A DNA stretch of 64,000 bases. Source: a virus. Positions 8,413 through 51,453 of the stretch are shown here, piece by piece. The first letter of the stretch is position 1, and each line of letters starts with the position of its first letter. The position numbers and the translations under genes are program-made. The stretch lies in the IMG/VR virus record IMGVR_UViG_3300045988_180644. One strand, 5' to 3'. The notes below the pieces were generated by a model that worked only from the letters and a program-made list of their open reading frames with translations, made no database searches and was not told where the DNA came from.

Positions 8413-9051
8413 TTAATTCTCATTTGGTATAACGATAGATTGAATATTTCCTCCTACAACTCTAAATCTTTCGTCATATAGTTGATTTTCATAGTCAATT
8501 TCCTTTTTTACAGATTCCTTACATTTCTTTAAACCTTCTTTTAATCCTATAAACATATCATTGTACTCAAAATATTCTCTGGCATGATATTTATGTTCCT
8601 CTTCTCCCAGAAAAATAATATCTAACTCAAAAGGTTTTAAATTGTTTATGTAATGACCTCTGGCATGGAGAATATCTATGACAACAACATAATTATCTAT
8701 AACAAAAACTGTTGTATTATCCTTTTCTTCTCTATCACAAGTTATTTGCAACTTTTCAATATATTTTTCGACTATTTCTGACAACTTTTCAATATTGTTT
8801 ACATCCTTAAATAATCCTTTTATATAATCCCATATATCATAAAGCTGGTTATTATCATCATAGATTTGGTTAATTCCTGTACTAGCCACAACAAGCTTAT
8901 CATTAATTTTATATATCTTTTGGTAATTCCCATCTTTCAGTTCTCTGTTTGAGTATGTGCTATAAGAATCGGAGCATATAATAATTCCATTTTTATTTTT
9001 CAATATAACCATATAAGACATAAAATTTCTTCTCCTTTTTACTTTTTTCAT
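8413..9051 (-). CDS. HslV/proteasome-beta-like Ntn hydrolase paralog A (Ser instead of Thr at the nucleophile position)
   Basis: MSYMVILKNKNGIIICSDSYS...KLVVASTG aligns by eye to HslV N-terminus TTIVSVRRNGHVVIAGDG...KVIAGFAG; paralogous to 11803..12399; alternative start at 9021 (MSYM). Confidence 0.55.
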   Translation of the reverse strand: MKKVKRRRNFMSYMVILKNKNGIIICSDSYSTYSNRELKDGNYQKIYKINDKLVVASTGINQIYDDNNQLYDIWDYIKGLFKDVNNIEKLSEIVEKYIEKLQITCDREEKDNTTVFVIDNYVVVIDILHARGHYINNLKPFELDIIFLGEEEHKYHAREYFEYNDMFIGLKEGLKKCKESVKKEIDYENQLYDERFRVVGGNIQSIVIPNEN

Positions 9052-9107
9052 TAATTTCCTCCAGCATAATATTGCTAAGGATATTATAACATTTGATTTG
9101 GTATTAA

Positions 9108-11802: not shown

Positions 11803-12399
11803 TTAGTCAAAAGGTATAACTAAACACTGCACTTTTCCACCTATTGTTCTTTGACCTTCTATATGCAAAGCGTTTTCTGTCATGATGGCATATTCTACTG
11901 ACTCAATGCATCTCTTTTGGGCTTCCTTTAACGATACATTTATTTCTGTATTTCTAAATTGCATAAGCCCATTGACAGCTATAAGTTCATCTCCAGAACA
12001 AAAAATATCGACATCTCCTTTCCTTTTAACGGTTATTGCTGTTGTCTTTGAATGAATAATATCTATAACATATAAAGTATCTTTATAGACAATAATCAAA
12101 CGAATATCCTGTACATATCTATCACAAAATCTTTTAATATAAGATATATATCTGTTGATTTGTTCTTCAATACTATCAAAATTCATGAAATATTCTTTAT
12201 AAGTTTCATTGATATCAATCGCTTTCCCTGTATACTCATCAATAAATCCATTCAATCCAGTGCTTGCAATAACAACATCACCAATCTGATGAATTTTTTT
12301 ATAATTTGAATCTTTAAGTGTCCTGTCTCCATAACAGCTATATGAATCAGAAGCAATGACAATTCCTTCTTTTGTCATATAAGTAATCATGTATGACAT
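11803..12399 (-). CDS. HslV/proteasome-beta-like Ntn hydrolase paralog B (Ser at the nucleophile position)
   Basis: MSYMITYMTKEGIVIASDSYSCYGDRTLKDSNYKKIHQIGDVVIASTG matches HslV N-terminal pattern (x.VVIAxD...K.N.KK...D.VIA..G); RBS AAAGGAG. Confidence 0.55.
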   Translation of the reverse strand: MSYMITYMTKEGIVIASDSYSCYGDRTLKDSNYKKIHQIGDVVIASTGLNGFIDEYTGKAIDINETYKEYFMNFDSIEEQINRYISYIKRFCDRYVQDIRLIIVYKDTLYVIDIIHSKTTAITVKRKGDVDIFCSGDELIAVNGLMQFRNTEINVSLKEAQKRCIESVEYAIMTENALHIEGQRTIGGKVQCLVIPFD

Positions 12400-19420: not shown

Positions 19421-19557
19421 TGTGTTTTGTTAAGAAAAAAGTATCCTGATGATGCAGACAGGATACTCCAAAAATATCTCACCAATGAGACAATCTTAGT
19501 TTATTCTATATTACATAAAATTTCAACTCATTCTTATATATAAATTTAAAAAGTTAT

Positions 19558-19586
19558 TTGACAATATGTTGTATACGACATATAAT
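19558..19586 (+). promoter_or_regulatory. consensus sigma-70 promoter of higBA
   Basis: TTGACA-17 nt-TATAAT, ~24 nt upstream of RBS. Confidence 0.7.
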
Positions 19587-19609
19587 ATAATTGAAAGATG
19601 AGGAGTATT

Positions 19610-19978
19610 ATGAATTTTGAAATAGAATTTTATGAAACAGAGAATGGACGTGAGCCAGCAAAAGAATTTATTTTATCATTAGAGCCTAAAATGCAAGCTA
19701 AAATGTTACATGAAATAGATTTATTGAAAGAAAATGGGATTTTTTTACGAGAACCACATACAAAAATGATTGAAAAAGGAATATATGAAATTCGAGCTAA
19801 ACAAGGAAGTAATATAAGTAGAGTTTTATACTTCTTCACTATAGGTCAAAGAATCATTCTTACAAATGGATTTATAAAGAAAACACAAAAAACACCTAAA
19901 AGATATATTAACTATGCAAAACAATGTAAGAAAGATTATGAAGCTAGGCATACTATGAAAAAGGAGGAGATTTTATGA
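19610..19978 (+). CDS. higB: type II toxin, HigB/RelE-ParE (Gp49-like) family
   Basis: MNFEIEFYETENGREPAKEFILSL...IYEIRAK...RVLYFF fits Gp49/HigB-type toxin; GAGGAG RBS; 4-nt ATGA overlap with antitoxin. Confidence 0.7.
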   Translation: MNFEIEFYETENGREPAKEFILSLEPKMQAKMLHEIDLLKENGIFLREPHTKMIEKGIYEIRAKQGSNISRVLYFFTIGQRIILTNGFIKKTQKTPKRYINYAKQCKKDYEARHTMKKEEIL

Positions 19979-20253
19979 GCAGTTATGATGATTTTAGAAA
20001 TAAGTTATTAGAAAATCCTGAAGTTAAAGCTGAGTATGAAGCAATGCAACCTGAATATGATATTATTCAAGCACTTATTGATGCAAGAAAACAACAGGGC
20101 TTAACACAAAAAGATTTATCTCATATTACAGGAATTACACAGGCTGATATTAGTAGAATTGAAAATGGAACACGAAATCCAAGTTTAGCTATGTTGAAAA
20201 GATTAGCTGATGGTATGGGTATGAGATTAAAATTAGAGTTTGTTAAAAAATAA
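19975..20253 (+). CDS. higA: HTH (XRE-family) antitoxin, HigA-like
   Basis: GLTQKDLSHITGITQADISRIENG helix-turn-helix; 92 aa. Confidence 0.75.
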   Translation: MSSYDDFRNKLLENPEVKAEYEAMQPEYDIIQALIDARKQQGLTQKDLSHITGITQADISRIENGTRNPSLAMLKRLADGMGMRLKLEFVKK

Positions 20254-20254
20254 A

Positions 20255-20281
20255 GAGTCTACCATAAGGTAGACTTTTTTC
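20255..20281 (+). terminator. intrinsic terminator between convergent higA and ClpC-like gene
   Basis: AGTCTACC-ATAA-GGTAGACT + TTTTTT; A-run on other side makes it potentially bidirectional. Confidence 0.7.
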
Positions 20282-20289: not shown

Positions 20290-21528
20290 TTAAGCTATGT
20301 TGACCATATATTCATCGTTCTTGTTGTCTTTTCCTAACAAAGAAGTCACATAATCACTAGCAACCTCCAGATTAAACCTTTCCATATCCTCACATGCACA
20401 CCATGCCATTGTATAGTCGATGATGTCTAGTGCCTTGTCTGGAAAGTATCTATCTGGAATAGTCTTCGCCATAGAAATGACTTTTTCTATATCCTCTAAT
20501 TCAATGCTAACATGATGATACTTACAATATCCCTGCAACTTCTTTTGAATCATTGCAGGAATTTGAGAAGGTTTTGGCTCATGAATATGAATTCTTCTAA
20601 AACGTCTTGCTAAAGCCTTGTTTACCGCTAGATATCTGTCATATTCTTCTTCAGTCGTAGCAATGATGAACTTGTGTTTCCCTTGTGTCAAAATAGGTTT
20701 TAATATTTCTGACAAAGATGTACTCCCTTCACTGCTTCCTGCCTGTGTTAAAGAGTGGGCTTCATCAATGAATACGATAAGTTTTTTACCTTTGACTGCT
20801 TTCAAAAATCTTTGAATCTTCTCTTCAAATTCCCCTCTATATTTAGTACCAGCCACAGTTGCTGTCACATCTAGATTGACAATTTGGTATCCTTTGAGTT
20901 TTTGGGGAGGATTGTATCGAATCAGTCTAGCTAATTCTTCTACAATGGCACTCTTCCCTACCCCAGCCTTACCAAGAAGAGCAATATTAGCCTTATCCTT
21001 GCATGATAAACCAATAATCATCTGTTTAACCTCTTTGTCTCTGCCAAGAATTGTCTTGGTTTTGGCTGGTTTGATGATTTCCGTGAATGATTCACAACCT
21101 TTTATAGCCTTTAATGAACTTTCTTTTTCTCTTAGTTTGTCAACAACTTCATCAATGTCGACTCCCTCTTCCTTAAGGATTTCTACAGAGACAGATTCTG
21201 ACTCTAATAATGCAACGCACAATTCATCAATGTTTACTTTAGCCTTTTTCTTGTTTTCTAAGGCATTATTAAGAATCTTTTTAAAAACATCGCCATATTC
21301 TAAATAGAACGGCTGTACTTCCTTTTCTGGGAAGAAATATTCTACCCTTTTAGCAAAAGATGTATAATCAACTCCATACTTTTTTAGTTCCTTTGTTAAT
21401 AAAACATCCATTTGTAATAGAGCTAATAGTAAATGACATGTGTCAACTCTTTCGTGTCCTTTATCGAAACAGATAGATTCAGCTGTCACAATTGCTTTTT
21501 GACATTTTTCATCAAATTTATCTAACAT
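20290..21528 (-). CDS. ClpA/ClpC-like AAA+ ATPase, truncated: Clp N-domain repeats + D1 module only
   Basis: two Clp_N-like repeats (LLLALL...), Walker A GKAGVGKS, LIVFIDEAHSL Walker B, ARRF sensor; no D2 domain; 412 aa. Confidence 0.75.
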   Translation of the reverse strand: MLDKFDEKCQKAIVTAESICFDKGHERVDTCHLLLALLQMDVLLTKELKKYGVDYTSFAKRVEYFFPEKEVQPFYLEYGDVFKKILNNALENKKKAKVNIDELCVALLESESVSVEILKEEGVDIDEVVDKLREKESSLKAIKGCESFTEIIKPAKTKTILGRDKEVKQMIIGLSCKDKANIALLGKAGVGKSAIVEELARLIRYNPPQKLKGYQIVNLDVTATVAGTKYRGEFEEKIQRFLKAVKGKKLIVFIDEAHSLTQAGSSEGSTSLSEILKPILTQGKHKFIIATTEEEYDRYLAVNKALARRFRRIHIHEPKPSQIPAMIQKKLQGYCKYHHVSIELEDIEKVISMAKTIPDRYFPDKALDIIDYTMAWCACEDMERFNLEVASDYVTSLLGKDNKNDEYMVNIA

Positions 21529-21547
21529 AGTATTCCTCCTTTTGATG

Positions 21548-21610
21548 CAAAAAAGACGTGCTATGCACGTCTTCGTTCGTTTATTTATCTACGTTAATAT
21601 TATATCATAG
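21548..21610 (-). promoter_or_regulatory. leader cassette h (before ClpC-like gene)
   Basis: CTATGATATAAT (perfect extended -10) ...AAACGAACGA + AGACGTGC/GCACGTCT + T6. Confidence 0.65.
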
Positions 21611-21615
21611 AAAAT

Positions 21616-22182: not shown

Positions 22183-23001
22183 TTATACCACCTTTAACTT
22201 AAAACTTGCTTCAGCCCCAAATAAAGAAGTTCTGATAGTTGTTTCTCCTTTCTTTTTAGGGTTAATCTTTCCACTTTCATTAATACTGGCTATTTCTTCA
22301 TCATCAATAGCATACTTTATATCATCTGTTTTATCACTACCAATTATATGTGGCTTTAATGTTGTTGTCTGATTAAGTCTTAGGGTTAATGTATCATTCT
22401 GAAACCCAAATACGATTTCTGGATTTTGTATAGAAACCTCAATATCCTTAGACACTTTATTTCCTGATTCATCGTTGGCAGTCACTTCTAATTGGTAAGT
22501 TCCTGCTTTTGTCATATCAACGTCACTGTCATCTATTTCTAACTGACACTTTGACAGGTCCTTGACCCCAAAATATTCGTTCCAGTCGATTGTCTGTCCA
22601 ACATAGACATTTAAATCCTTGTATTGAACAATTTCAGGTTTTACTGTATCTTCAACAGAAACTGTAAATGGAAGTTCAATTGTTTCTGAATCGCTTTTGT
22701 ATGTTATCTTGCATTGATATGTTCCTACTGCTGGATAATTCTTACCTTTTTCCATCTCTACATCAGTTTCTAATGTCGAATCAAATAATGGGCTTCCTTG
22801 TTTTTTAGCCTTGGATTTATTGATGTTGACATATTCAGATATAGACGAAGATATATTTGTTCCATACTCTATAGTGAAGTTATCCTGTTTGAGGGATATG
22901 ATAGGGCCTGTTTCATCCAGAATGAATCTTATCAAAAATACAGTGCCAAAACATGCAATCATTATCATAATCGTAAGAATAATTATTTTTCCTTTTTTCA
23001 T
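22183..23001 (-). CDS. membrane-anchored surface protein with Ig-like repeats
   Basis: N-terminal TM/signal (IIILTIMIMIACFGTVFLI); domain paralogous to N-terminus of 23077..24402 (YPAVG...VEDT.KP). Confidence 0.6.
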   Translation of the reverse strand: MKKGKIIILTIMIMIACFGTVFLIRFILDETGPIISLKQDNFTIEYGTNISSSISEYVNINKSKAKKQGSPLFDSTLETDVEMEKGKNYPAVGTYQCKITYKSDSETIELPFTVSVEDTVKPEIVQYKDLNVYVGQTIDWNEYFGVKDLSKCQLEIDDSDVDMTKAGTYQLEVTANDESGNKVSKDIEVSIQNPEIVFGFQNDTLTLRLNQTTTLKPHIIGSDKTDDIKYAIDDEEIASINESGKINPKKKGETTIRTSLFGAEASFKLKVV

Positions 23002-23076
23002 CTCCTTTCCTCCGATTCAAAAGTTCTTGTATCTTTATTATTTTATCACACATATAAAAAAAGAGGCATTTTGCCC

Positions 23077-24402
23077 CTAATATTTCGTAATATTCTTTTC
23101 CAAGTCAATGATAAACACTGTGTTGCTGTCAATAGCCTGCATAACTTTCTTCATCTGAGAAGTCGGAATTGCTACACATCCTCCTGTATAATGGATACTA
23201 TTAGCACAATGCAGGAAAAAAGCAAAGCCTTTTCCTTTTACATTAGATGTATTATAGCTGAAGGCTGCAGCATACTTATATTGAGTAGGATAATCAATTA
23301 AATGCTCATCATTTTTTTTACTGCAAGAATGTTCTGTTACATCCTCATCTACAAATTGATTGTATAATGTTTCTCCACACCAGTAATCATTGTTATCAAT
23401 TCTATGATACGGAAGCTGAGTACCAGGATTTGATGATATTCCCATTAATTTTGTAAAAGTATATTGTCCAATAGGCGTTCTCGTACTGTTTTCACTTCCT
23501 GTTCCTACTCCAGCCTTACCAAAATCAGCTGTTGTCTCTAGAACTTCTTTCCATTTTCCATTCACTTTCTGATAATAAGTAAATGTTCCTTGTCTTGATG
23601 AACTTGATGGAGCTGATGCAATCATAATTTTTGAATAGCTTTTAGCAACATCTAATTTAGAAACCCATAAATCATTTGACGATGCGCTGGATGAACCAGA
23701 TGTTCCAGTTGATGTTCCGGTATTCTTATTTGAAGTGCTTGAAGAATTGCTACTTGCTGTTTTGTTACTCGTAGAACTCCCCTTCTGTGATGAGCTTGAG
23801 TTGTTTGTCTTGTTTGATGATTGACTTGTAGTGCTTCCCTTTGAAGAACTCTTAGAAGTAGTATTCTTTGATGCCGTTATAGCTTTTTCTTTGACTGTCA
23901 AATCAATTTCCTTTTGAGCCTTGTTCTGATATTCATCAGTAGCTGTGACCTTCACCTTATAATTTCCTGATTTTGTATAGTCAATTTGAGCATCTTCTAC
24001 TGTAATGGTTACATCAGATAAATCTGTTGCTGTAAATTTCTTTTTATCAATCTTTTCACCATTATCAACAGTGACCTTTGTTATTCCATCGGTAAAGGTT
24101 GGAGCCTTTGTGTCTTCAACTTTTATTGTCACTTCCTGATTCGTATTTCCGTGACTAATCTTTAATGTATACTCCCCAACGGCAGGGTATTCTTTACCTT
24201 CTTCATTTTCTGGAATCCCTGTCATTGTTGAATTTTTCATATATTCATCACTGTTTTCTAGATACGTTTTTAAATCCGAAGAAACGATTTCTCCATATTC
24301 TACTGTTAATTCTTTATTCTTTAATTTCATTTGTTCCTGCTGGCATCCACTAATCATTAATGACACTAACAGTACCAAAAAAACTTGTAAACATTTTCTC
24401 AT
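23077..24402 (-). CDS. lipoprotein with Ig-like domains, S/T-rich linker and C-terminal L,D-transpeptidase (YkuD-like) domain
   Basis: lipobox LMISGC; LHCANSIHYTGGCVAIP matches LD-transpeptidase catalytic motif; start moved to ATG (MRKCLQV) with GGAGG RBS. Confidence 0.65.
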   Translation of the reverse strand: MRKCLQVFLVLLVSLMISGCQQEQMKLKNKELTVEYGEIVSSDLKTYLENSDEYMKNSTMTGIPENEEGKEYPAVGEYTLKISHGNTNQEVTIKVEDTKAPTFTDGITKVTVDNGEKIDKKKFTATDLSDVTITVEDAQIDYTKSGNYKVKVTATDEYQNKAQKEIDLTVKEKAITASKNTTSKSSSKGSTTSQSSNKTNNSSSSQKGSSTSNKTASSNSSSTSNKNTGTSTGTSGSSSASSNDLWVSKLDVAKSYSKIMIASAPSSSSRQGTFTYYQKVNGKWKEVLETTADFGKAGVGTGSENSTRTPIGQYTFTKLMGISSNPGTQLPYHRIDNNDYWCGETLYNQFVDEDVTEHSCSKKNDEHLIDYPTQYKYAAAFSYNTSNVKGKGFAFFLHCANSIHYTGGCVAIPTSQMKKVMQAIDSNTVFIIDLEKNITKY

Positions 24403-24417
24403 TTTATTCCTCCTTAC

Positions 24418-24486
24418 AACAAAAAAAAGATGTGTAGCTTTGTACACATCTCCTTCGTATATATTTACATGATTATTTTATCATAA
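24418..24486 (-). promoter_or_regulatory. leader cassette i (before LD-transpeptidase lipoprotein)
   Basis: TATGATAAAATAATCATGTAAATATATACGAAGGAG + ATGTGTACA/TGTACACATCT + T8. Confidence 0.6.
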
Positions 24487-29865: not shown

Positions 29866-29934
29866 ACAAAAAAGACACACCTTATGTGCGTCTTTTCTTT
29901 CGTATATGATTTACATATATATTTTATCATATAT
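29866..29934 (-). promoter_or_regulatory. leader cassette j (before 29217..29849)
   Basis: TATATGATAAAATATATATGTAAATCATATACGAAAGAAAAG + ACGCAC/GTGTGTCT + T6. Confidence 0.6.
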
Positions 29935-29991: not shown

Positions 29992-31014
29992 TTATTTTAA
30001 ACTTTGTCTTAGTTTTTTTATATCAGCCTCTAAGGATAGTAAATAATTTTTAAATTCCTTTTTTTCATCATTATCAGCAAAGATGATTTTATCAGGTGTT
30101 AAATTTGTAGTTATTGTCTTAAATGTTCTCACTTTTTTTATGATTTCATTGCCAGTGTAATTTTTATCCTTATTCCCTTCAATTTCCATTTGTAAATCAA
30201 AAAGATATTTTGAGAATCCTTTTCTATCCATTTTGCTAAGAGCCTTCATGACTCTATCTTGTTCTGCATCAGTTAGCGAAGATATTAAATAAGCTTGATT
30301 AAAATTAATGAGTTCTTTTCTGAAGTATTCCTTAATGAGAGTATTATGTGCAAAGTATATTGCGTTAACTTTTTTGGCTTTTGCTAGTGAATATGAAAAA
30401 CCAAATCTTTTCATTTTATTAACAACATATTCAGCTTTATTAACTACACCTTCAAGTTTTGTGTAAACTCCATTTTCATATCCAAAAATATAGTCGTAAT
30501 GTATCATGAGCTTTTCAGCACTTAAGTTTCTAGACAGAAGGTTTGTATCATGATATACCTTTTCTATTTCCTTTTGTGTTGCCCCGCGTGGTACTACAAT
30601 GGCTGGTATCTTCGAAAACTTTCTTCTCTTGGCTTCATTTCTTTCTTCAATAGCTCTTTTATATAGATTATGAACAGCTCTAAATCTCTGAGACCCAGCT
30701 CTTATCTCGTATTTTCCCGTTTCATTTCCTTCTTCATCTACTTCTCTTATGACATTGATTGGCTGTAACACCCCTACTAACCAAATAGATTCCTGAAACT
30801 CCTCCATTTCTTCTGGGGTCTTATTTGGATATTCATTCTTTTTATTATCAACAATTTTATCTAAGGGGATGTATTGCATCTCATATTCTTCAAGTTCATC
30901 TAAAGTTTTTTTATCATTAGCTTCAAATGGTGTTTCAAATGAGTTCCCAAAAAAATCAATTGATTCAACTGGCTCCATGTCACCAACACTTAAACTTCTT
31001 TTATTCCTTGCCAT
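29992..31014 (-). CDS. parB: ParB/Spo0J-like partition protein
   Basis: LQPINVIRE...YEIRAGSQRFRAV resembles ParB N-terminal box; downstream of parA; perfect palindrome parS-like site just 3' of it. Confidence 0.65.
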   Translation of the reverse strand: MARNKRSLSVGDMEPVESIDFFGNSFETPFEANDKKTLDELEEYEMQYIPLDKIVDNKKNEYPNKTPEEMEEFQESIWLVGVLQPINVIREVDEEGNETGKYEIRAGSQRFRAVHNLYKRAIEERNEAKRRKFSKIPAIVVPRGATQKEIEKVYHDTNLLSRNLSAEKLMIHYDYIFGYENGVYTKLEGVVNKAEYVVNKMKRFGFSYSLAKAKKVNAIYFAHNTLIKEYFRKELINFNQAYLISSLTDAEQDRVMKALSKMDRKGFSKYLFDLQMEIEGNKDKNYTGNEIIKKVRTFKTITTNLTPDKIIFADNDEKKEFKNYLLSLEADIKKLRQSLK

Positions 31015-31017
31015 TTT

Positions 31018-32160
31018 CTATGCCTCCTTTTTCCCTTGCAAGAGCTTTGACACATATTCATCAACCATTAATAATTCTTCGGTAGATAAACCATCCATTT
31101 TATCTTCTACATGTCTCTGAGCTCTAATTCTTTCAGCCGCTTTTTGATTTTCCTCTGTTCTCTTATTAGCACTTACTATTCCTGCTAATAAATCCATTTC
31201 ATACTCAATTTTTTCTGCATCAAAATATTCTTTAACAAAATTTATGATACTTGTTCTATAATCATCTTTAACTTGTGAAGCTAAATAATCCCAAGTATTT
31301 GAATCAACAACTAATTGTTTATCTACAATTTTAGTATCAAAAACTTTAATACCTGCTACATCAGAAATACTATTATTAATTTCTTCAAGGACTATTCTAT
31401 CGTTACTTCTTACTCTTTTATATTTATTACATAAAATACCTTTAATCTCAAAATCTGGTATATACTTCTTTACACTTTCTACATTTCTTAAAACGGTATT
31501 TATTCCTTCAGCTGAATTCATATCCATAAAGGTAGGAATAATTAATTCTCTAGACGCAGCAATTCCATTAAGCGATAATACTCCTAAAGATGGAGGGCAG
31601 TCTATAAAGATAAAGTCATAATCGAAATACTCTTCAATTTGTTTTACAACTAATTGCAACATGATACGATTGTACTTTTTCCCTTCATCTGTTAGTATAT
31701 AATGTCTTTCTACATGATTGTCAGGAGTTTGACTCATAAAGGCTAGTTCAATAAAAGATGTATCTTGTCCGACTCCAGGAATGATATCACATCCAAAAGG
31801 AATATCATTATATATCCACTTCATTCCATTTCTTTCAGCTTTTGTATATGTTGGAGTTCTTTTTGAATTGCTTATATATTGTATAGGAGGTAACTTTCCC
31901 CATCTTTCGAAATAAGACACAAGATATGCCATCGTTGGAATTCCATGTTCTTTCCCAAATTCCAATGCACCCATTCGATTCGTGTTAATATTAAACATAC
32001 TCGTTAAAGAGTTCTGAGGGTCCCAATCTATCAGGAGAACCTTCTTATGAAAAACTGTCCCCATAATATTAGCAATATTTGCTGTCAATGTCGTTTTACC
32101 TATTCCACCTTTATTATTATAAATGAGTATGACATGTGTTTTATTTTTATTTGTTGACAT
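31018..32160 (-). CDS. parA: ParA/Soj-family partition ATPase (long C-terminal extension)
   Basis: deviant Walker A NNKGGIGKTT; start set to ATG (MSTNKNKTHVIL) with AAAGGAG RBS rather than tracker start 32292. Confidence 0.8.
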   Translation of the reverse strand: MSTNKNKTHVILIYNNKGGIGKTTLTANIANIMGTVFHKKVLLIDWDPQNSLTSMFNINTNRMGALEFGKEHGIPTMAYLVSYFERWGKLPPIQYISNSKRTPTYTKAERNGMKWIYNDIPFGCDIIPGVGQDTSFIELAFMSQTPDNHVERHYILTDEGKKYNRIMLQLVVKQIEEYFDYDFIFIDCPPSLGVLSLNGIAASRELIIPTFMDMNSAEGINTVLRNVESVKKYIPDFEIKGILCNKYKRVRSNDRIVLEEINNSISDVAGIKVFDTKIVDKQLVVDSNTWDYLASQVKDDYRTSIINFVKEYFDAEKIEYEMDLLAGIVSANKRTEENQKAAERIRAQRHVEDKMDGLSTEELLMVDEYVSKLLQGKKEA

Positions 32161-32308
32161 CCTGATTCTCCTTTCATATTCACACTTTATTATATTAAAA
32201 TTATATATTTTTTTCAACTTGTATTTACATTCCCTTGAATTTGTGCGTATCGTTTTCGCGGCCCCAAAATCTTTTGATTTTGCCAGGTTCACTTTTCATT
32301 TTAGATAA

Positions 32309-43001: not shown

Positions 43002-44624
43002 ATGGACAAATATTATAAATATGAAGACAAAATAGTCAATTCCTTTCTTTTTGTACCAAAGTTCTTGTTTTCTGACGAACGCTTTATGAAGTTAAGTGTC
43101 ACAGAGAAACTGATTTATTCCTTATATCTACACAGATATACAATAAGCCAATATCATGACGAGATAGGACGATATATCATTTTTACTGATGATGATGTTG
43201 TTGACAAACTTTACATCACTTCAAGGACTTGTATCAGAGCTAGAAAAAAACTCGAAGAAGCAAATCTCATCAAAATCCAAAAAACTCTAACATATAACAA
43301 AATCTATCTTGTGAATGTACTGAAAGCTTCTGAAAGTGAACATTTCTTTAACGAAAATGATTTAGAGGGATTAAAATTTTATCAGTTCCCAAGAGAATTC
43401 TTTGAAAATACTTATAAAAACTTAACACTGAATGCCAAGATGGTCTATACAGTTTTTCTAGATACTTTAACTCTTAGTCAAATGAATTACTTTGTAGATT
43501 CTAACAAAAGGATTTATTTTCAGGAGAACATGGACATACAGATAAAAAAACTAAATCTAACAAAGCCGACAATACGTGAGGCAAGATACCTCTTGATGGT
43601 ATGTGGATTGTTGTTAGAGTATAAAACTTTCACTGAAGATATCAGATATTATCCATTAAAGCTGTCTCATTATACAGATAGAACTGCTGAATATAAGAAA
43701 TGTAAGACAGCGAAAGAGAAAAAAGCATTTATAGAGAAGACAACAAAACAAGACAAAGATGAGTTAATACTGAATCCATTAAAAATAGGTGTAAAACTTC
43801 AGGACTATAGAAAAGACGCAGGACTTACACAGACAAGACTAATCTCTTTATTAAGAGAAAGAAATGTAGATATTACTCAGCAGACTTATTCTGCGTATGA
43901 AAATGGAAAGTTACATATCAAAAAAGAACTATATGATATCTGTTTAGAGTGTATACAAGACGAAAAGAAAAAAATGTCTGAGTATACAATACCAAAAGAA
44001 AATATTGTCATAAATGACAACCCTAAAGAAAAAAATTGTCATGACATACAAGATAAAAACAAAGAAATGTCAGTAGAGGAAGAAAAATTAGTCACGAATG
44101 AAAAGAAAGAATTGACATCTCCTGAAAGAAAAGAAAGTCATATAAATTATACTTATACAAACAAAACAGAAAATAATTATAATGAAAAATTAATAGAATT
44201 AATTAATTATATTAATAACATTATAAATACTTCACATATTCTTTTAGAAGAAAAAGATTACTTAACTGCATGCTTTGATAAACTTCGTATATATAAACGA
44301 TTCTATCTCAATACTTCACAAGAACTATTCACAACAGAAAGATTATATGAAATCTTACAGAAGATGAATGAAAAAAATAAAGTTGAAGAAGTGTGTTTGA
44401 AGATTTTAGATAGAATTGAAACAAGTCACTATCAATTTAAAACACCAGATGCAGCCATCAATTGTTTTATTACTTTCTTGCTTAATGAACTAAAAGTAGA
44501 GGAAAAACAAGCTGATGATGTCCCAGAATGGTTTTCTAAAAAGAAATTTCAGTTTAATAGATTACCTGAACGAAAAATAGAAGTGTCAGATGAAATAAAA
44601 GACTATAAATGGTGGGAGGAATAA
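43002..44624 (+). CDS. rep: RepA_N-family replication initiator with duplicated N-domain and internal HTH
   Basis: YYKYEDKIVNSFLFVPKFLF...LSVTEKLIYSLYLHRY...IGRYIIFT matches Firmicutes RepA_N signature; second copy FYQFPREFF...LTLNAKMVYTVFLD; XRE-like HTH GLTQTRLISLL. Confidence 0.7.
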   Translation: MDKYYKYEDKIVNSFLFVPKFLFSDERFMKLSVTEKLIYSLYLHRYTISQYHDEIGRYIIFTDDDVVDKLYITSRTCIRARKKLEEANLIKIQKTLTYNKIYLVNVLKASESEHFFNENDLEGLKFYQFPREFFENTYKNLTLNAKMVYTVFLDTLTLSQMNYFVDSNKRIYFQENMDIQIKKLNLTKPTIREARYLLMVCGLLLEYKTFTEDIRYYPLKLSHYTDRTAEYKKCKTAKEKKAFIEKTTKQDKDELILNPLKIGVKLQDYRKDAGLTQTRLISLLRERNVDITQQTYSAYENGKLHIKKELYDICLECIQDEKKKMSEYTIPKENIVINDNPKEKNCHDIQDKNKEMSVEEEKLVTNEKKELTSPERKESHINYTYTNKTENNYNEKLIELINYINNIINTSHILLEEKDYLTACFDKLRIYKRFYLNTSQELFTTERLYEILQKMNEKNKVEEVCLKILDRIETSHYQFKTPDAAINCFITFLLNELKVEEKQADDVPEWFSKKKFQFNRLPERKIEVSDEIKDYKWWEE

Positions 44625-45820: not shown

Positions 45821-45903
45821 GTCCTCGTGATGGAACAGGTAGACATGCATGGCTTAGACCCATGTGCTTATGCGTAAGGGTTCGAATCCCTTCGAGGACA
45901 CCA
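45821..45903 (+). tRNA. tRNA-Leu (anticodon TAG), class II long variable arm
   Basis: hand-folded cloverleaf: acceptor GTCCTCG/CGAGGAC, anticodon stem CATGG/CCATG loop CTTAGAC, GGTTCGAATCC T-arm, CCA encoded. Confidence 0.7.
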
Positions 45904-45947
45904 ATATCACTCCAATGCTTGTAAAGAGTGAATATATGAAATTATAT

Positions 45948-46020
45948 GAACATCTAGCATAATGGAAATGCGTAGGGTTCAGCGCCCTTCATGATACTGG
46001 TTCAAGTCCAGTGGTGTTCA
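45948..46020 (+). tRNA. atypical tRNA-like gene (anticodon loop TTCAGCG; no encoded CCA)
   Basis: acceptor GAACATC/GATGTTC, D-arm TAGCATAATGGAAATGC, T-arm ACTGG-TTCAAGT-CCAGT; paralog of 46396..46468. Confidence 0.45.
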
Positions 46021-46070
46021 AATGCCAGATAAGAAATAAAGCTAAAACAGGGATAATCATATCCCTACAT

Positions 46071-46208
46071 GGTCCTTTAGCTCAGTAGGTAGAGTAGATG
46101 ACTGTTATACATCACTACATCAAATAAAGAAAGTTAAGTACGTGATGTATGTCAACACTTTGTGTTGATAAATCATGGTTACAGGTTCGAATCCTGTAGG
46201 GACCACCA
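46071..46208 (+). tRNA. tRNA-Asn-like (GTT) gene carrying ~62-nt insertion in variable region
   Basis: acceptor GGTCCTT/AGGGACC+A+CCA pairs across 138 nt; D-arm TAGCTCAGTAGGTAGAG; anticodon loop CTGTTAT; insert forms 9-bp hairpin ATACATCAC/GTGATGTAT. Confidence 0.45.
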
Positions 46209-46236
46209 AATATACATTTTTTGTGACAAACAATAT

Positions 46237-46313
46237 TGGTGAGTAGCGTAGTTGGTTAGCGCAATCGGCTGTTAACCGATGGGTCGTGGGTTCAAGTCCC
46301 ACCTCGCCAGCCA
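46237..46313 (+). tRNA. tRNA-Asn (GTT)
   Basis: acceptor TGGTGAG/CTCGCCA, anticodon stem ATCGG/CCGAT loop CTGTTAA, CCA encoded. Confidence 0.7.
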
Positions 46314-46314
46314 T

Positions 46315-46390
46315 GGCCTGTTCGTCTAAAGGTTAGGACACAACCCTTTCACGGTTGCAATGTTGAGTTCAAGTCTCACACAGGTCACCA
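46315..46390 (+). tRNA. tRNA-Glu (TTC)
   Basis: anticodon stem CAACC/GGTTG loop CTTTCAC; GTCTAAAGG D-loop. Confidence 0.65.
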
Positions 46391-46395
46391 AAAAT

Positions 46396-46468
46396 AGACA
46401 TCTAGCATGATGGTAATGCAAAGGGTTAATTACCCTTTATGATATCGGTTCAAGTCCGATGATGTTCA
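46396..46468 (+). tRNA. atypical tRNA-like gene (anticodon loop TTAATTA; A1-C72 mismatch; no CCA)
   Basis: paralog of 45948..46020: same acceptor/D-arm, T-arm ATCGG-TTCAAGT-CCGAT. Confidence 0.45.
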
Positions 46469-46528
46469 GAATCTAATAATTATATAGACTATGTATTATG
46501 TATTGTTATTAGGGCTTAGCCCTAAAGT

Positions 46529-46605
46529 GGACATTTAGCTCAGGTGGTTAGAGCCATCGCCTCATAAGCGATTGGTCGGAGGTTCAAGTCCTTCAATGTC
46601 CACCA
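46529..46605 (+). tRNA. tRNA-Met (CAT), elongator-type
   Basis: acceptor GGACATT/AATGTCC, anticodon stem ATCGC/GCGAT loop CTCATAA. Confidence 0.7.
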
Positions 46606-46615
46606 TATAAAGATG

Positions 46616-46689
46616 GTGAGGTTAGCTTAATGGTAAAGCACTGGACTGTGGCCCCAGTTATACGAGTTCGATTCTCGTACTTCACACCA
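46616..46689 (+). tRNA. tRNA-His (GTG)
   Basis: anticodon loop CTGTGGC; extra 5' G at 46615 (His G-1). Confidence 0.65.
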
Positions 46690-46694
46690 TATAT

Positions 46695-46771
46695 TGGAAA
46701 GTAGCTCAGTTTGGTAGGGCGCACGCTTTGGGAGCGTGAGGGCATGGGTTCAAATCCCGTCTTTCCAGCCA
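46695..46771 (+). tRNA. tRNA-Pro (TGG)
   Basis: acceptor TGGAAAG/CTTTCCA, anticodon stem CACGC/GCGTG loop TTTGGGA. Confidence 0.7.
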
Positions 46772-46776
46772 TATAT

Positions 46777-46853
46777 GCCACCATAGCACAACTGGCAGTG
46801 CAACTGACTTGTAATCAGGAGGTTGGAGGTTCGATTCCTTCTGGTGGCACCAT
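46777..46853 (+). tRNA. tRNA-Thr (TGT)
   Basis: acceptor GCCACCA/TGGTGGC, anticodon loop CTTGTAA. Confidence 0.7.
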
Positions 46854-46857
46854 ATTT

Positions 46858-46944
46858 GGAGAGGTATGCCTAGTGGCGATGGCACCTGACTGTAAATCAG
46901 GCACGTTAGAAACACCGTAGGTTCGACTCCTACTCTCTCCACCA
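46858..46944 (+). tRNA. tRNA-Tyr (GTA), long variable arm
   Basis: anticodon stem CCTGA/TCAGG loop CTGTAAA. Confidence 0.7.
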
Positions 46945-46952
46945 TTTCAAAT

Positions 46953-47041
46953 GCCCAAATGGTGAAATCAGGTAGACACACTGGACTTAAAATCCAGAGG
47001 AAAATAATTCCGTGCCAGTTCGAGTCTGGCTTTGGGTACCA
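46953..47041 (+). tRNA. tRNA-Leu (TAA), long variable arm
   Basis: anticodon stem CTGGA/TCCAG loop CTTAAAA. Confidence 0.7.
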
Positions 47042-47047
47042 TATTTT

Positions 47048-47122
47048 GCGGGTGTGATTCAACGGCTAGAATGTCAGCCTTCCAAGCTGAATACGTGGGT
47101 TCGATTCCCATCACCCGCTCCA
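47048..47122 (+). tRNA. tRNA-Gly (TCC)
   Basis: acceptor GCGGGTG/CACCCGC, anticodon stem TCAGC/GCTGA loop CTTCCAA. Confidence 0.7.
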
Positions 47123-47127
47123 TAAAT

Positions 47128-47217
47128 GGAAAGTAAATCCAAGAGGTTTTGGAACACGCCTGCTAAGCGTTGTGTGGGTATGACACCCATGAGTTTCGAT
47201 TACTCTGCTTTCCGCCA
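47128..47217 (+). tRNA. tRNA-Ser (GCT), long variable arm
   Basis: anticodon loop CTGCTAA; 90 nt. Confidence 0.65.
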
Positions 47218-47220
47218 TAT

Positions 47221-47296
47221 ACGTCCTTAGCTCAGAGGAAAGAGCACGCGCCTTCTAAGCGTGATGTCAAAGGTTCGACTCCTTTAGGGCGTACCA
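47221..47296 (+). tRNA. tRNA-Arg (TCT)
   Basis: anticodon stem CGCGC/GCGTG loop CTTCTAA. Confidence 0.65.
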
Positions 47297-47305
47297 ATTC
47301 AATAT

Positions 47306-47382
47306 CGCGGGGTAGAGCAGTTTGGTAGCTCGTCGGGCTCATTCCCCGAAGGTCGCAAGTTCAAATCTTGCCCCCGCAACCA
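47306..47382 (+). tRNA. initiator tRNA-fMet (CAT)
   Basis: C1xA72 mismatch, three G-C pairs in anticodon stem (TCGGG/CCCGA), loop CTCATTC. Confidence 0.7.
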
Positions 47383-47384
47383 AT

Positions 47385-47459
47385 GGTGCATTCGTATAAT
47401 GGTTAGTATGCTTGACTGTCTATCATGAGATAGGGGTTCGATTCCCCTATGCACCGCCA
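47385..47459 (+). tRNA. tRNA, probably Asp (GTC); anticodon arm imperfect
   Basis: acceptor GGTGCAT/ATGCACC, T-arm AGGGG-TTCGATT-CCCCT; loop CTGTCTA. Confidence 0.5.
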
Positions 47460-47465
47460 AAAAAC

Positions 47466-47550
47466 GCCGAATGTCCGGGTGGTGAGGAAGGAATCTTGAA
47501 AACTCTGGGCGGGCAACCGCTTGCAGGTTCGAATCCTGTGTTCGGCGCCA
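47466..47550 (+). tRNA. tRNA-Ser (TGA), long variable arm
   Basis: loop CTTGAAA; 85 nt. Confidence 0.55.
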
Positions 47551-47551
47551 C

Positions 47552-47627
47552 GGTTTCGTAGCTCAATAGGTAGAGCGCGTGGCCGAAGACCACGGCAGTA
47601 TTGGTTCAATTCCAGTCGAAACCACCA
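47552..47627 (+). tRNA. tRNA-Phe (GAA)
   Basis: anticodon stem CGTGG/CCACG loop CCGAAGA. Confidence 0.7.
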
Positions 47628-47632
47628 TAAAT

Positions 47633-47711
47633 GGGAAATGGGACTGCTTGGAGTGGTCATCTGTTTTGCACACAGAACATCAGATGGATTCGAATCCCAT
47701 ATTTTCCACCA
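47633..47711 (+). tRNA. tRNA-Ala (TGC)
   Basis: anticodon stem TCTGT/ACAGA loop TTTGCAC. Confidence 0.6.
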
Positions 47712-47718
47712 AAAATCT

Positions 47719-47793
47719 AGGAGCGTAGCACAAAGGTGAGTGTACACGACCGATAATCGTGCGATGTAAGTTCGAGTCTTGCCGTTCCTACCA
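47719..47793 (+). tRNA. tRNA-Ile (GAT)
   Basis: anticodon stem CACGA/TCGTG loop CCGATAA. Confidence 0.7.
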
Positions 47794-47800
47794 TTTATAT

Positions 47801-47874
47801 CATCTGTAGCTTATATGGTAAAGCCACAGCCGTTAGTGCTGGGGAAGTTTGGTTCGACTCCAGACCGGATGCCA
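47801..47874 (+). tRNA. atypical tRNA-like gene; anticodon loop CGTTAGT (would read TTA = ochre UAA if functional)
   Basis: T-arm TTTGG-TTCGACT-CCAGA, acceptor CATCTGT/CCGGATG with one mismatch; position-33 G. Confidence 0.35.
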
Positions 47875-48283
47875 GAGTTAAGGATTCTCTGAGAAAAATC
47901 TATATTGGAAAGGACCACGGTGAGGAACTGTAAGCTTTTTTGCGACACTATTCCAAAACCGAAAGCATCTAGCTAATGCCTTGTTGGTCTGAGTTTCAAG
48001 TGCGAGGTTTGGGGCGACTTGAATAAAAATAGTATGGGAATAAAAAATCTGACGACAGCCGGATTGACAATATATTTCCGTCCTGTATAGGTAAAAGTGG
48101 TTTGATGTGAACCGTCAAAAGAAAAAACATCGCTGTCAAATACCGAACAAAGGATAAGAGTAGGTAAAAGACAAACCAGAATTCTTGAGGCTATTAACCT
48201 CTATTTGAATATCATTGAATAAGTTAATGGTCAACAGTCCATTGGGTAACTCCATAGGAGCGCTGTTAGGTCTTTTCTTTTAT

Positions 48284-48360
48284 AGCAGAATGGCGAAATT
48301 GGTAGACGCACAGGACTTTGACTCCTGCATTTGAAGGTTCGAATCCTTCTTCTGCTGCCA
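48284..48360 (+). tRNA. tRNA-Gln (TTG)
   Basis: acceptor AGCAGAA/TTCTGCT, anticodon stem CAGGA/TCCTG loop CTTTGAC, CCA encoded. Confidence 0.7.
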
Positions 48361-48375
48361 AAATACTCAAATAGG

Positions 48376-48969
48376 GTGATAGATTTGTCAACTTATTATG
48401 ATTATTATGTTTTTATTAAAAAGGATAATGAGTTTAAGTATGCTGGATACTATGATATCTCTGGCAAACCCCTTCCCATATATTATCATACCCGTAGCTT
48501 CTCATACGGTTTCTTAGATTATGGACAATACGTTAATGACCTAGATAAATATGGTATCCATTTACCAAACGAAGGTGATGAGGAAGATGAAGCCAGATTT
48601 GGTTACCTTTTCCAATTACCAGACATAGATTCCATTCCAGACAGAAGCCATAAAGAAGCTTATATATATCAAACTCTACAAAGAGATATGGAAATTAATC
48701 ATTTCGAATATGACATAGAAGAATATTTGGAAAATGATGAAGAATCTGTCGATGGGCATCCACTTGTTATCTGCAAGAGCGAATTTGATAGATTGTCATT
48801 AGATAAACAAAGGGAATATTTTTACTATCACTGGACTGATTATGAAGATATGTCCTACCATAGAAATATTCTATGTACCATCATCAATAACTGGATTAAT
48901 ATAAGACAATTCAAGGAATTCAGTGATGTAGATAGAAAAGACATTTATATTGTTGCCTTTGGAGGGTAG
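48376..48969 (+). CDS. hypothetical protein (start uncertain)
   Basis: tracker ORF begins inside tRNA-Gln; candidate GTG start VIDLSTYYDYY just after it. Confidence 0.4.
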   Translation: MIDLSTYYDYYVFIKKDNEFKYAGYYDISGKPLPIYYHTRSFSYGFLDYGQYVNDLDKYGIHLPNEGDEEDEARFGYLFQLPDIDSIPDRSHKEAYIYQTLQRDMEINHFEYDIEEYLENDEESVDGHPLVICKSEFDRLSLDKQREYFYYHWTDYEDMSYHRNILCTIINNWINIRQFKEFSDVDRKDIYIVAFGG

Positions 48970-48983
48970 GGGGGGTGATGTAA

Positions 48984-49712
48984 GTGCAATGTAAAATATA
49001 TAAACGCACTTGGTCGTTGAAAAGGAAGTATCAATCAGAAGCGAGTTGTTATTATCTTTTTGATATTGATTATCCTTTTCCTTATAAACCATCCTATTTA
49101 AAAGCTCACAATTATCCTCGATTTTGGTGGACAACAGAATGGAATCTTATCTGTGATGAATTCAATCCTGAAAAGTATGAAGATATGGAATGGTTTAGGA
49201 AGAATGTTGCAGGATGCTTTGTGTCTCCTAAAGCGCTTAAATATATTCCATTTGCCAAATCAGATGATGATTTCCCTGTCCATGAAATATATGAAATAGA
49301 AGTTGTACAATATAAGGTAGTCAATGAAATGAGCTATCCTATAGATATGAATAACTATATCAGTGATTATATTGAGGAAAATATTAGAAGGCGTAAGGAA
49401 ACAGCACAACATTTCGATATTGGTCGTTATTATCCATCTCTACGCTACTATTGGCGAAATCCTCAAACAACAAATGAAAAAAGACAGCAGTTATCTAAAG
49501 AGGAGAAAAGATACTATCAGGAAAACGGATGGCCTATCCAAGAACGTTCTAAAAGAAATGCAAGGAATTTGCCAGACCTGTTTGACGATAAATTCATCCA
49601 TGTTGATAAATGCTGGAAATCTCAGACTCGTCAGTCTCGACAATATTTTAGAAATAAAAGAGCCAAAAGAAAAAGAATTCATGGAGAGGAATATAGGAAT
49701 TTTGTGGGGTGA
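48984..49712 (+). CDS. hypothetical protein with basic C-terminus
   Basis: 242 aa; GTG start; RNKRAKRKRIH tail. Confidence 0.5.
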   Translation: MQCKIYKRTWSLKRKYQSEASCYYLFDIDYPFPYKPSYLKAHNYPRFWWTTEWNLICDEFNPEKYEDMEWFRKNVAGCFVSPKALKYIPFAKSDDDFPVHEIYEIEVVQYKVVNEMSYPIDMNNYISDYIEENIRRRKETAQHFDIGRYYPSLRYYWRNPQTTNEKRQQLSKEEKRYYQENGWPIQERSKRNARNLPDLFDDKFIHVDKCWKSQTRQSRQYFRNKRAKRKRIHGEEYRNFVG

Positions 49713-50011
49713 TATTCTTGTCATATACTCAAAAACGTCATTCAAAAGAAGATATTCGACATGAAGCATGTGTTCATATCAAAAGAAAAGAAAAAATATT
49801 AAAGAATGTTTATGATGCGGGCAATGGTGAATGTAAAAACAATGAAAAACTTGGCTCTTACTACGGATACACGAAAGGAAAGTCGCACCGTCTTTCAAAA
49901 GGCAAAATTCATTGCTCCTGTCCAATGTGTAGAGAAAAGACGAAGGAAAGAGGATGGAAACACGCTGATGAAGTCAATATGATGAAAGGACTTGAAGATG
50001 AGAGAGAATAG
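49709..50011 (+). CDS. small basic CxC...CxxC protein (paralog of 51856..52113)
   Basis: SHRLSKGKIHCSCPMCREKTKERGW vs THRLSDAKIHKSCPLLQRKTNKLGY. Confidence 0.5.
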   Translation: MIFLSYTQKRHSKEDIRHEACVHIKRKEKILKNVYDAGNGECKNNEKLGSYYGYTKGKSHRLSKGKIHCSCPMCREKTKERGWKHADEVNMMKGLEDERE

Positions 50012-50134
50012 CCAATGTGAATGATGGATAATTCTAGAAAAAATCCGTCAAGACTCTACTCCTATTGAGGATGGGAAAAACTCAAGCTGAAAGATGCACC
50101 AATAACCAAGTATAAGAGGAAGGCTGTTTTATAT

Positions 50135-50209
50135 CTGTCTGTGGTCCAAAGGATACGATACAGAGCTACGGACTCTGTGATGATGGTTCGATTCCATCCA
50201 GACAGGCCA
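50135..50209 (+). tRNA. tRNA-Arg (ACG)
   Basis: acceptor CTGTCTG/CAGACAG, anticodon stem CAGAG/CTCTG loop CTACGGA. Confidence 0.65.
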
Positions 50210-50221
50210 AGAGGTAGAAAG

Positions 50222-50833: not shown

Positions 50834-51008
50834 ATTGAATGTAACATATGAAGAATTAGTCAATCATGTTAAAGACTCTTTAAAAATGAAGAATGTCCCT
50901 TTAACAAAAGTGAAAGATGTAAAAGCATATTATGTTCCTAACACAAAAGTTTTGTATTACACAGCCATGTATAATGGTGAAGAAATCAAAGGAGAAAAAT
51001 ACTTGTAG
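50802..51008 (+). CDS. hypothetical protein
   Basis: 68 aa ORF overlapping HD-GYP 3' end. Confidence 0.4.
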   Translation: MKMKLEIQTNELNVTYEELVNHVKDSLKMKNVPLTKVKDVKAYYVPNTKVLYYTAMYNGEEIKGEKYL

Positions 51009-51009
51009 T

Positions 51010-51450: not shown

Positions 51451-51453
51451 TGT

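Follow-up and report, generated by a model that had tools for sequence, protein, structure and literature searches.

A small phage-borne family of ClpC-like proteins with an N-domain and a single AAA+ module

A large human-gut phage or phage-plasmid of about 31% GC carries a gene for a ClpC-like protein with one AAA+ ring instead of two. The DNA analyzed (the window) is a 64,000-nucleotide stretch, IMG/VR record IMGVR_UViG_3300045988_180644, and the gene at 20290-21528 on its minus strand encodes 412 amino acids (hereafter the ATPase). Our preferred reading, which we hold to be evenly poised between right and wrong, is that the ATPase is a catalytically competent, phage-borne, single-ring member of the ClpC/Hsp100 group that would serve as a ClpP-independent unfoldase or as a competitor, and that has an exchangeable N-domain resembling that of host ClpC. 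Class-II Hsp100 proteins normally have two rings. A first reading made from the sequence alone (the sequence-only reading) had described an orphan ClpC-like N-domain with the first nucleotide-binding domain (D1) and no second one (D2), located in a mobile element; Pfam, structural alignment, the span of a PHROG match and a tblastn search for D2 all bear out the architecture, and the setting was correct as well. The parts of the gene are listed below; pLDDT is the predicted local distance difference test.

20290..21528, minus strand: coding sequence of the single-ring ClpC-like protein (N-domain and D1), 412 amino acids, ATG start, TAA stop at 20290-20292
21121..21528, minus strand: N-domain, residues 1-136, ClpC-type double four-helix repeat
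20575..21081, minus strand: large AAA+ subdomain of D1, residues about 150-318, with invariant columns in alignments
20950-20973, minus strand: Walker A, invariant columns
20824-20853, minus strand: D1 pore loop KYRG, invariant columns
20761-20778, minus strand: Walker B, invariant columns
20602-20607, minus strand: arginine fingers R308/R309, invariant columns
20329..20574, minus strand: small (lid) subdomain of D1 and family-specific C-terminal helix, residues 319-400
20293..20328, minus strand: C-terminal tail, residues 401-412, disordered, non-conserved, pLDDT below 50

Pfam recognized Clp_N at residues 22-63 (32.5 bits), AAA (PF00004) at 183-312 (50.4 bits) and AAA_lid_9 at 325-383 (40 bits), and gave no match to PF07724 (AAA_2, D2). 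The protein terminates at the D1-D2 linker, and its family-specific C-terminal helix occupies the position of that linker in two-ring relatives. In a phmmer search of all chains of the Protein Data Bank (PDB), residues 1-372 aligned with residues 2-397 of Bacillus subtilis ClpC (E 2e-51). This alignment covers the N-domain and both D1 subdomains and stops at ClpC residue 397, where the M-domain starts, so that the ATPase has no M-domain; PDB chains consisting only of an N-domain aligned with residues 1-128. An AlphaFold2 (AF2) model made with a 60-sequence alignment (pLDDT 86) has eight helices in residues 1-137, a folded N-domain and D1, and 11 disordered residues at the end. Foldseek placed the D1 of the ATPase on the D1 of ClpC/ClpC1 at 2.3-2.8 Å over about 260 residues. 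PHROG 4871, an 'ATP-dependent protease', was matched with an E value of 3e-73 over profile positions 5-437 of 764 only. The sequence-only reading had counted two Clp_N repeats: the first is the Pfam match, and the second falls below Pfam detection and is supported by the PDB alignment and the AF2 model.

The motifs that had been read by eye were located at 186-193 (GKAGVGKS), 253-258 (FIDEAH, which contains the IDEAH first noted) and 306-310 (ARRFR, which contains ARRF), and the pore loop AGTKYRGEFE at 226-235 provides an invariant aromatic residue, Tyr. Twelve family members and 60 relatives were aligned, and the catalytic set was invariant in both alignments: G186, G189-K192, Y230-R231-G232, D255-E256, T291-T292 (sensor-1) and R308-R309. 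The ATPase thus has every D1 residue needed for ATP binding, hydrolysis and a pore grip on polypeptide. The (V/L/I)GF loop for ClpP is sited in D2 of the two-ring relatives and has no counterpart in the ATPase alignment, in agreement with the earlier remark that no IGF docking loop could be recognized by eye. None of the NCBIfam equivalog cut-offs was reached (ClpA, 220.7 vs 993 bits; ClpB, 216.3 vs 1232; ClpV, 201.1 vs 885), and the PADLOC defense models gave generic P-loop matches only, with E values of at least 2e-4 and scores under 19 bits. Because the defining features D2 and the ClpP loop are absent, the ATPase is not a ClpC; it is a variant within the Hsp100 or phage-Clp kind. It shares the N-domain fold, the D1 fold and the catalytic and pore-loop motifs of D1 with ClpC of Bacillota (B. 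subtilis and Staphylococcus aureus, PDB 3j3s and 9rai), but unlike ClpC it has no D2, (V/L/I)GF loop or M-domain. The last of these is also absent from its closest two-ring relatives, M-domain-less proteins of 650-700 amino acids from Erysipelotrichaceae, to which it is about 40-52% identical, compared with 29-36% for solved ClpC structures. The D1 of the ATPase lies in a separate clade from those of both ClpC and the two-ring relatives.

A protein search returned relatives of 412-429 amino acids that are 42-97% identical to the ATPase and have the same architecture and end point, followed by the 650-700-amino acid two-ring proteins of Erysipelotrichaceae (Coprobacillus, Longibaculum and Thomasclavelia). 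We then built a family profile from 12 single-ring members and ran it against 1.84 billion representatives. The highest scores, 644-504 bits, went to proteins of 412-423 amino acids and one 392-amino acid member with an internal deletion, and the first two-ring protein (667 amino acids) appeared only at 443 bits, below a gap in the scores. Because of this gap, the single-ring family is, by the measure of its profile, real but small, at about 6-8 clusters at 50% identity. Its signatures FIIATT, RRFR and R(Y/F)FPDK..ID(Y/F)TM are all present in the ATPase. At least 22 contigs from the human gut, the longest of 187 kb, encode the identical protein, and a scan of IMG/VR with the family alignment yielded one true member (L016, in an element of Thomasclavelia cocleata) and otherwise generic Clp proteins. 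Generic Clp proteins were also among the matches listed in a scan of GTDB genomes. Full-length identity did not exceed about 30% for matches in GenBank phage records and about 33% for those in phages and plasmids; a search of GenBank phages for DNA nearly identical to 20 kb gave no match. No model specific for the single-ring family was found in NCBIfam, PADLOC or PHROG, and no description of a conserved Clp family of N-domain and D1 only, with host-swapped N-domains, was found in the literature.

Such a protein could also be what is left of a two-ring clpC that is decaying or was misassembled, whether because of a frameshift, because the gene was split or because a toxin-antitoxin cassette interrupts it. 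A cassette of this type does lie directly downstream of the ATPase gene, and one 390-amino acid match (P0070) proved to be a mere fragment of a 697-amino acid two-ring protein. The sequence-only reading had itself named a frameshift or an adjacent D2 reading frame as the finding that would overturn it. We used D2 of five two-ring relatives as tblastn queries, and no D2 was detected when all frames of the 64-kb window and the family loci were searched; the sole cross-match was the D1 P-loop itself, and a frameshifted or split clpC was rejected on these grounds. Moreover, 13 or more family members share the same end point, and the 90%-identical ortholog on contig L101, which does not have the toxin-antitoxin cassette, keeps the same end position and the same terminator. 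Between these two genes the ratio of nonsynonymous to synonymous substitution rates (dN/dS) is 0.16 for the whole gene, 0.115 in D1 and 0.23 in the N-domain, and the 22 or more contigs with the identical protein are independent. We give almost no credence to the idea of a remnant or artefact; the substitution pattern indicates that the ATPase is a conserved truncated form under purifying selection.

The history of the two domains was investigated with neighbor-joining trees calculated from the 60-sequence alignment, using residues 150-375 for D1 and 1-140 for the N-domain. In the D1 tree, 13 single-ring proteins form one clade (100/100 bootstraps) apart from the chromosomal proteins of 650-700 amino acids. 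The N-domain tree recovers a single-ring clade in 0/100 bootstraps, and individual N-domains fall into different clades of host N-domains. Among two-ring proteins the N-domain is 47% conserved vs 61% for D1, and it is the more similar of the two domains in only 4% of pairs; when single-ring proteins were compared with their best host match, N-domain identity exceeded D1 identity in 10 of 13 members. The extreme case is the sister lineage P0004 (50% identity, 183-kb contig), in which the values are 88% for the N-domain vs 39% for D1. Over nucleotides 13-420, the P0004 gene matches the chromosomal clpC-like gene of P0033 at 86% identity, which falls to 45-60% past codon about 125-140, a sharp break at the domain boundary. 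The two-ring relatives are chromosomal, with YchF ... S6-SSB-S18 neighbors, and have the (V/L/I)GF ClpP loop and no M-domain. The trees, the domain identities and the P0004 breakpoint show that an old, phage-specific D1 motor of single origin repeatedly received host ClpC N-domains.

In the mechanism that we propose, the ATPase would assemble into its own homo-hexamer and act as a ClpP-independent unfoldase or remodeller, and its substrates would be unfolded and then released, not passed to ClpP. The N-domain would be an exchangeable specificity module that engages the same adaptors or clients as the N-domain of host ClpC, and the phage would thereby divert, or compete for, clients of host ClpCP. 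A possible benefit is that phage proteins or host antitoxins would be spared from degradation. In Bacillota, ClpCP controls stress responses and competence, and in S. aureus also antitoxin turnover. Because one old motor has had its N-domains repeatedly replaced by those of host ClpC, the family points to a previously undescribed form of phage interference with ClpC-dependent proteolysis, namely molecular mimicry with an active motor. There is precedent for phage targeting of ClpC in SPO1 Gp53 (PMC6873191).

Several observations weigh against this proposal. The N-domain of the window protein is only 52% identical, and its D1 43%, to P0018, its best host match; its N-domain subclade is not nested in any sampled host clade; and it has Cys in place of the near-invariant family residue Glu31, which we take to be the equivalent of ClpC E32, a contact for phospho-arginine. 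The signal of mimicry is thus modest in the window's own protein and strongest in sister lineages. N-domain exchange could in part be homology-driven recombination without selection for mimicry. Hexamerization, ATP hydrolysis and unfolding are predicted from sequence, and the isolated D1 ring of a class-II Hsp100 protein may be a weak motor. A protein search for host ClpC with the N-domain only returned 88 candidates and one fragment and nothing useful.

The different behavior of the two domains is informative for two other ways in which the protein could act on host ClpC. The first is as a poison subunit that co-assembles with host ClpC through D1-D1 contacts, reduces the number of D2 domains and ClpP loops per ring, and so inhibits ClpCP in a dominant-negative manner. 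The N-domain and D1 are arranged as in the host protein, D2 and the ClpP loop are missing, and phages are known to target ClpC (PMC6873191). However, co-assembly should put D1 under selection to follow that of the host, and the reverse was observed: the ring-forming D1, about 40-48% identical to host D1, is diverged and belongs to the old separate clade with 100/100 support. Because the ring-forming domain is the one that does not track the host, we consider a poison subunit quite unlikely.

The second is as a passive sponge that sequesters host adaptors or ligands through its N-domain, with D1 as an oligomerization scaffold only. The tracking of host ClpC N-domains would fit, and a partial ClpC homologue acts as a sponge in mycobacteria: ClpC2, a ClpC N-domain that stands by itself, can compete for the ligands of that domain (PMC10030653). 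ClpC2 is without an AAA+ module, whereas the ATPase has a complete, conserved D1 motor that shows no variation at the Walker B Asp-Glu, the pore-loop Tyr, sensor-1 or either Arg finger, and D1 is the most constrained part of the protein by dN/dS; a scaffold would not need catalytic residues. Since the catalytic residues and D1 are the parts under the strongest constraint, we judge a passive sponge to be very unlikely. The same observations bear on the suggestion of the sequence-only reading that truncated unfoldases of this kind act as adaptor decoys. The repeated N-domain exchange with host clpC lends this idea indirect support at the level of the family, but the invariance of residues in the ATPase site, pore loop and Arg fingers favors an active motor over a passive decoy, and in the window protein the modest N-domain identity to the best host and the Glu-to-Cys replacement speak against it. 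Another partial ClpC homologue, plant ClpT, is composed of N-domain-like modules and likewise has no AAA+ module.

The proposed mimic with an active motor can be compared with other phage proteins. SPO1 Gp53, an adaptor-like modulator of ClpCP, has the same proposed purpose of redirecting host ClpC-dependent proteolysis; it is a 25-kDa ClpC binder outside the AAA+ class, whereas the ATPase is a ClpC paralogue with a motor domain (PMC6873191). Jumbo phages are known to encode ClpA, ClpX, ClpP and ClpS (Iyer et al., 2021; PMC7824862); these proteins and PHROG 4871 are, like the ATPase, phage-encoded members of the Hsp100/Clp ATPase systems. The jumbo-phage Clp ATPases are full-length two-ring or ClpX-type proteins, whereas the ATPase corresponds only to the first part of the PHROG profile (positions 5-437 of 764). 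As a natural, conserved protein of N-domain and D1 under selection, the ATPase shows that the first ring can be retained on its own and offers a minimal model for D1 function, and the domain history marks the N-domain as a host-specific interface.

The ATPase gene lies in a minus-strand block that encodes, in order, ParA, ParB, a RecD2-like helicase, a small open reading frame (ORF), a RecJ-like DHH protein, a YkuD-like protein, a Big_2 protein, a 150-amino acid ORF and the ATPase. In P0004 the order is ParA-...-RecD2-RecJ-ATPase-RadC-Pol III alpha. ClpA remodels P1 RepA and ClpX remodels MuA, and the ATPase could similarly remodel replication or partition proteins of the phage, for example a RepA_N initiator or ParB. 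The gene sits in a replication block (ParA-ParB-RecD2-RecJ-ATPase, then RadC and Pol III alpha) in two lineages, the window encodes a RepA_N initiator (43002-44624, plus strand), and the catalytic motifs are conserved. Elsewhere in the family the neighbors differ: the member in the T. cocleata element, which is also present in IMG/VR, is found amid Bro-N, ANT and integrase genes, and other loci have RtcB, PARG, dUTPase and ThyA or ligase, methylase, sigma and NrdD genes nearby. No neighbor is conserved across the family loci, and the replacement of N-domains by those of host ClpC is not explained by such a role. We regard a dedicated replication remodeller as unlikely.

All family loci that were read have phage-like contexts from gut Bacillota, and no D2 gene, ClpP gene or conserved small neighbor was found at any of them. 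A conserved small downstream partner was rejected as a candidate, as the ORFs of 63-80 amino acids present in several loci are unrelated between lineages. The ParA and ParB genes of the window lie at 29992-32292 on the minus strand, and together with the RepA_N initiator they suggest a phage-plasmid lifestyle. At 22183-24447 (minus strand), between the RecJ and ATPase genes, are two genes that P0004-type phages lack at the syntenic position. One encodes the YkuD-like protein, which has an L,D-transpeptidase domain, a linker rich in Ser/Thr and an N-terminus resembling a signal or lipoprotein sequence, and the other encodes the Big_2 Ig-like protein.

The phage also encodes two candidate peptidase partners for an unfoldase, and the sequence-only reading had raised a partnership with them as HslV-like proteins.

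11803..12399, minus strand: proteasome-beta/Anbu-like paralogue B, 198 amino acids, MSYM start, candidate partner
8413..9021, minus strand: proteasome-beta-like paralogue A, 202 amino acids from MSYM (the listed ORF extends to 9051), candidate partner

The paralogues are 37-39% identical, depending on the alignment. MSYM is the true start, and the conserved 'RRNF' that precedes it is a translated Shine-Dalgarno sequence. The Pfam Proteasome model (PF00227) scored 27.3 and 21.3 bits on the two proteins vs a cut-off of 22.4, which one of them passes. An AF2 model of the proteasome-like protein (pLDDT 87, predicted template modeling score (pTM) 0.86) matched proteasome beta and Anbu in Foldseek (probability 1.0, TM 0.58-0.65), with the alpha-beta-beta-alpha fold of N-terminal nucleophile (Ntn) hydrolases. 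The canonical residues of such enzymes are an N-terminal Thr1 nucleophile, Asp17 and Lys33. Ser2, Asp18 and Lys35 are invariant in the family that starts with MSYM, with the register assigned by eye, and because of these residues the paralogues are suggested to be Ser1 Ntn hydrolases in which Ser replaces Thr. The family is rare: only 12 proteins were found in a database of 5.8 billion, GenBank phages gave no match, and an IMG/VR scan with the pair found nothing.

The ATPase might therefore be considered the dedicated unfoldase of these peptidases in an ATP-dependent protease of the HslUV or proteasome type. The two peptidase-like genes share the strand of the ATPase gene and lie 8-12 kb downstream of it; one of them is above the Pfam threshold, and the modeled fold is that of proteasome beta/Anbu. 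The ATPase itself is no longer coupled to ClpP, and its C-terminal tail is flexible. Since a survey of proteasome homologues that included phage-borne ones found no co-occurring AAA+ partner (PMC8665760), the niche for such a partner is open, and with the ATPase and two proteasome homologues in one genome the pairing is directly testable. In P0004 phages, too, motif-level proteasome-like ORFs follow the ATPase gene at a distance of about 8 kb downstream; these are not recognized by Pfam, and the two lineages in which the genes co-occur are syntenic relatives and are therefore not independent evidence for a partnership.

Linkage was examined within ±10 kb of the genes, and no conserved linkage of ATPase and peptidase was found. 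Five other family lineages have no such gene in this range, and the peptidase-bearing phages L096-L099 have no ATPase in it. Variant L009 (187-kb contig) encodes a 100% identical ATPase and has lost both peptidase genes, save for a 15-amino acid remnant. The C-terminal tails of the family are variable and show no HbYX- or HslU-like motif, and a docking motif of either kind on the ATPase was rejected on the basis of these unconserved tails. HslU and ClpX also have one AAA+ ring per subunit, as the ATPase does, and HslV-like genes occur in the same phage genome; HslU and ClpX belong to another AAA+ clade, however, and the ATPase has no I-domain, zinc finger, IGF loop or conserved C-terminal docking tail. 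Thus the peptidase-like genes first noted are real and their link to the ATPase is weak, and we think a dedicated protease of this kind distinctly improbable. The stronger proposal that the ATPase is the missing AAA+ partner of phage proteasome homologues, forming with the two Ser1 paralogues a ClpP-independent, virus-encoded, ATP-dependent protease in which a Clp-clade unfoldase was recruited to a peptidase of proteasome fold and its N-domain would pick host ClpC clients to be destroyed, is a shade less probable again.

The deletion in L009 corresponds to about 8.4-15.9 kb of the window and removes the proteasome-like genes, a radical-SAM gene and ORFs of 430 and 330 amino acids; the 15-amino acid remnant of the first proteasome-like gene is at L009:15634-15678. 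Four otherwise near-identical P0004-type phages carry unrelated-looking ORFs of 221-238 amino acids at one position (L001:19057-19722, L002:18918-19604, L003:18986-19702 and L004:18949-19635), each with Thr or Ser, Asp 16 residues on, and (V/I)GG near the C-terminus. This position may represent a variable locus occupied by divergent homologues of the proteasome.

The sequence-only reading had credited the ATPase with its own leader and with a HigB/HigA-like pair converging on it across a bidirectional terminator. Both descriptions were accurate, and the features are given here.

21529..21615, minus strand: 5' leader of the ATPase gene, with -10-like element, hairpin and U-run, and Shine-Dalgarno sequence
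20256..20275, no strand assigned: bidirectional terminator hairpin flanked by an A-run and a T-run, between the stop codons of the ATPase and antitoxin genes
19505..20247, plus strand: 743-bp insertion relative to L101, holding a promoter and the toxin-antitoxin genes
19558-19586, plus strand: perfect TTGACA-17-TATAAT promoter (12/12 sigma-70), inside the insertion
19598-19978, plus strand: Gp49/HigB-like toxin (PF05973, E 2e-26)
19975-20253, plus strand: HTH_3 antitoxin, Xre-type (PF01381, E 2e-15)

In the leader, 5' of the ATG, a promoter-like extended -10 (TGATATAAT) at 21599-21607 is followed by a hairpin at 21553-21573 (dG -20 kcal/mol, z -3.7) with a U-run and by the Shine-Dalgarno sequence AGGAGG at 21535-21540. 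This hairpin might act as an attenuator or terminate the upstream gene. Extended -10-like sequences of the form TGnTAnAATA recur at many intergenic sites of the window, 25-40 nucleotides 5' of minus-strand genes, with 38 matches vs 23 expected; examples on the minus strand are 21598-21607, 23039-23048, 24474-24483, 29920-29929 and 9082-9091.

The toxin and antitoxin genes overlap by 4 nucleotides, and by its architecture of a toxin gene, an overlapping HTH gene and their own promoter the pair is predicted to be a type II toxin-antitoxin system. The L101 contig aligns to window positions 21545-20248 and 19504-19158 and skips 19505-20247; in L101 the hairpin at 20256-20275 is present without the pair and is directly followed by the ortholog of the window's 81-amino acid ORF. 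The module is also missing from all other family contexts. Because a close relative lacks this 743-bp insertion, the HigBA-like pair is an inserted cassette and incidental to the ATPase, and the functional coupling of the two that might be read into their convergence was rejected on account of this indel. A PhdYeFM/ParE toxin-antitoxin pair and an integrase gene are located near the proteasome-like pairs of L096-L099 (about 11.3-14.1 kb in L096), and this group of phages seems commonly to carry toxin-antitoxin cassettes.

An array of 25 tRNA genes occupies 45821-51833 on the plus strand, and one of them (47801-47873) has the anticodon TTA and would read UAA; despite this tRNA, no gene in the window looks interrupted. 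Stop read-through, which the tRNA brought to mind, was rejected, with TAA being the commonest stop (47 of 86 ORFs). Read-through past the stop of the ATPase was also rejected, as the frame runs antisense into the antitoxin gene and contains 10 in-frame TAA codons. An Rfam tRNA match of 135 nucleotides at 46071-46205 was not listed by ARAGORN and may hold an insertion. Finally, a protein with SPFH/Band-7 and flotillin domains is encoded at 54502-55965 on the plus strand.

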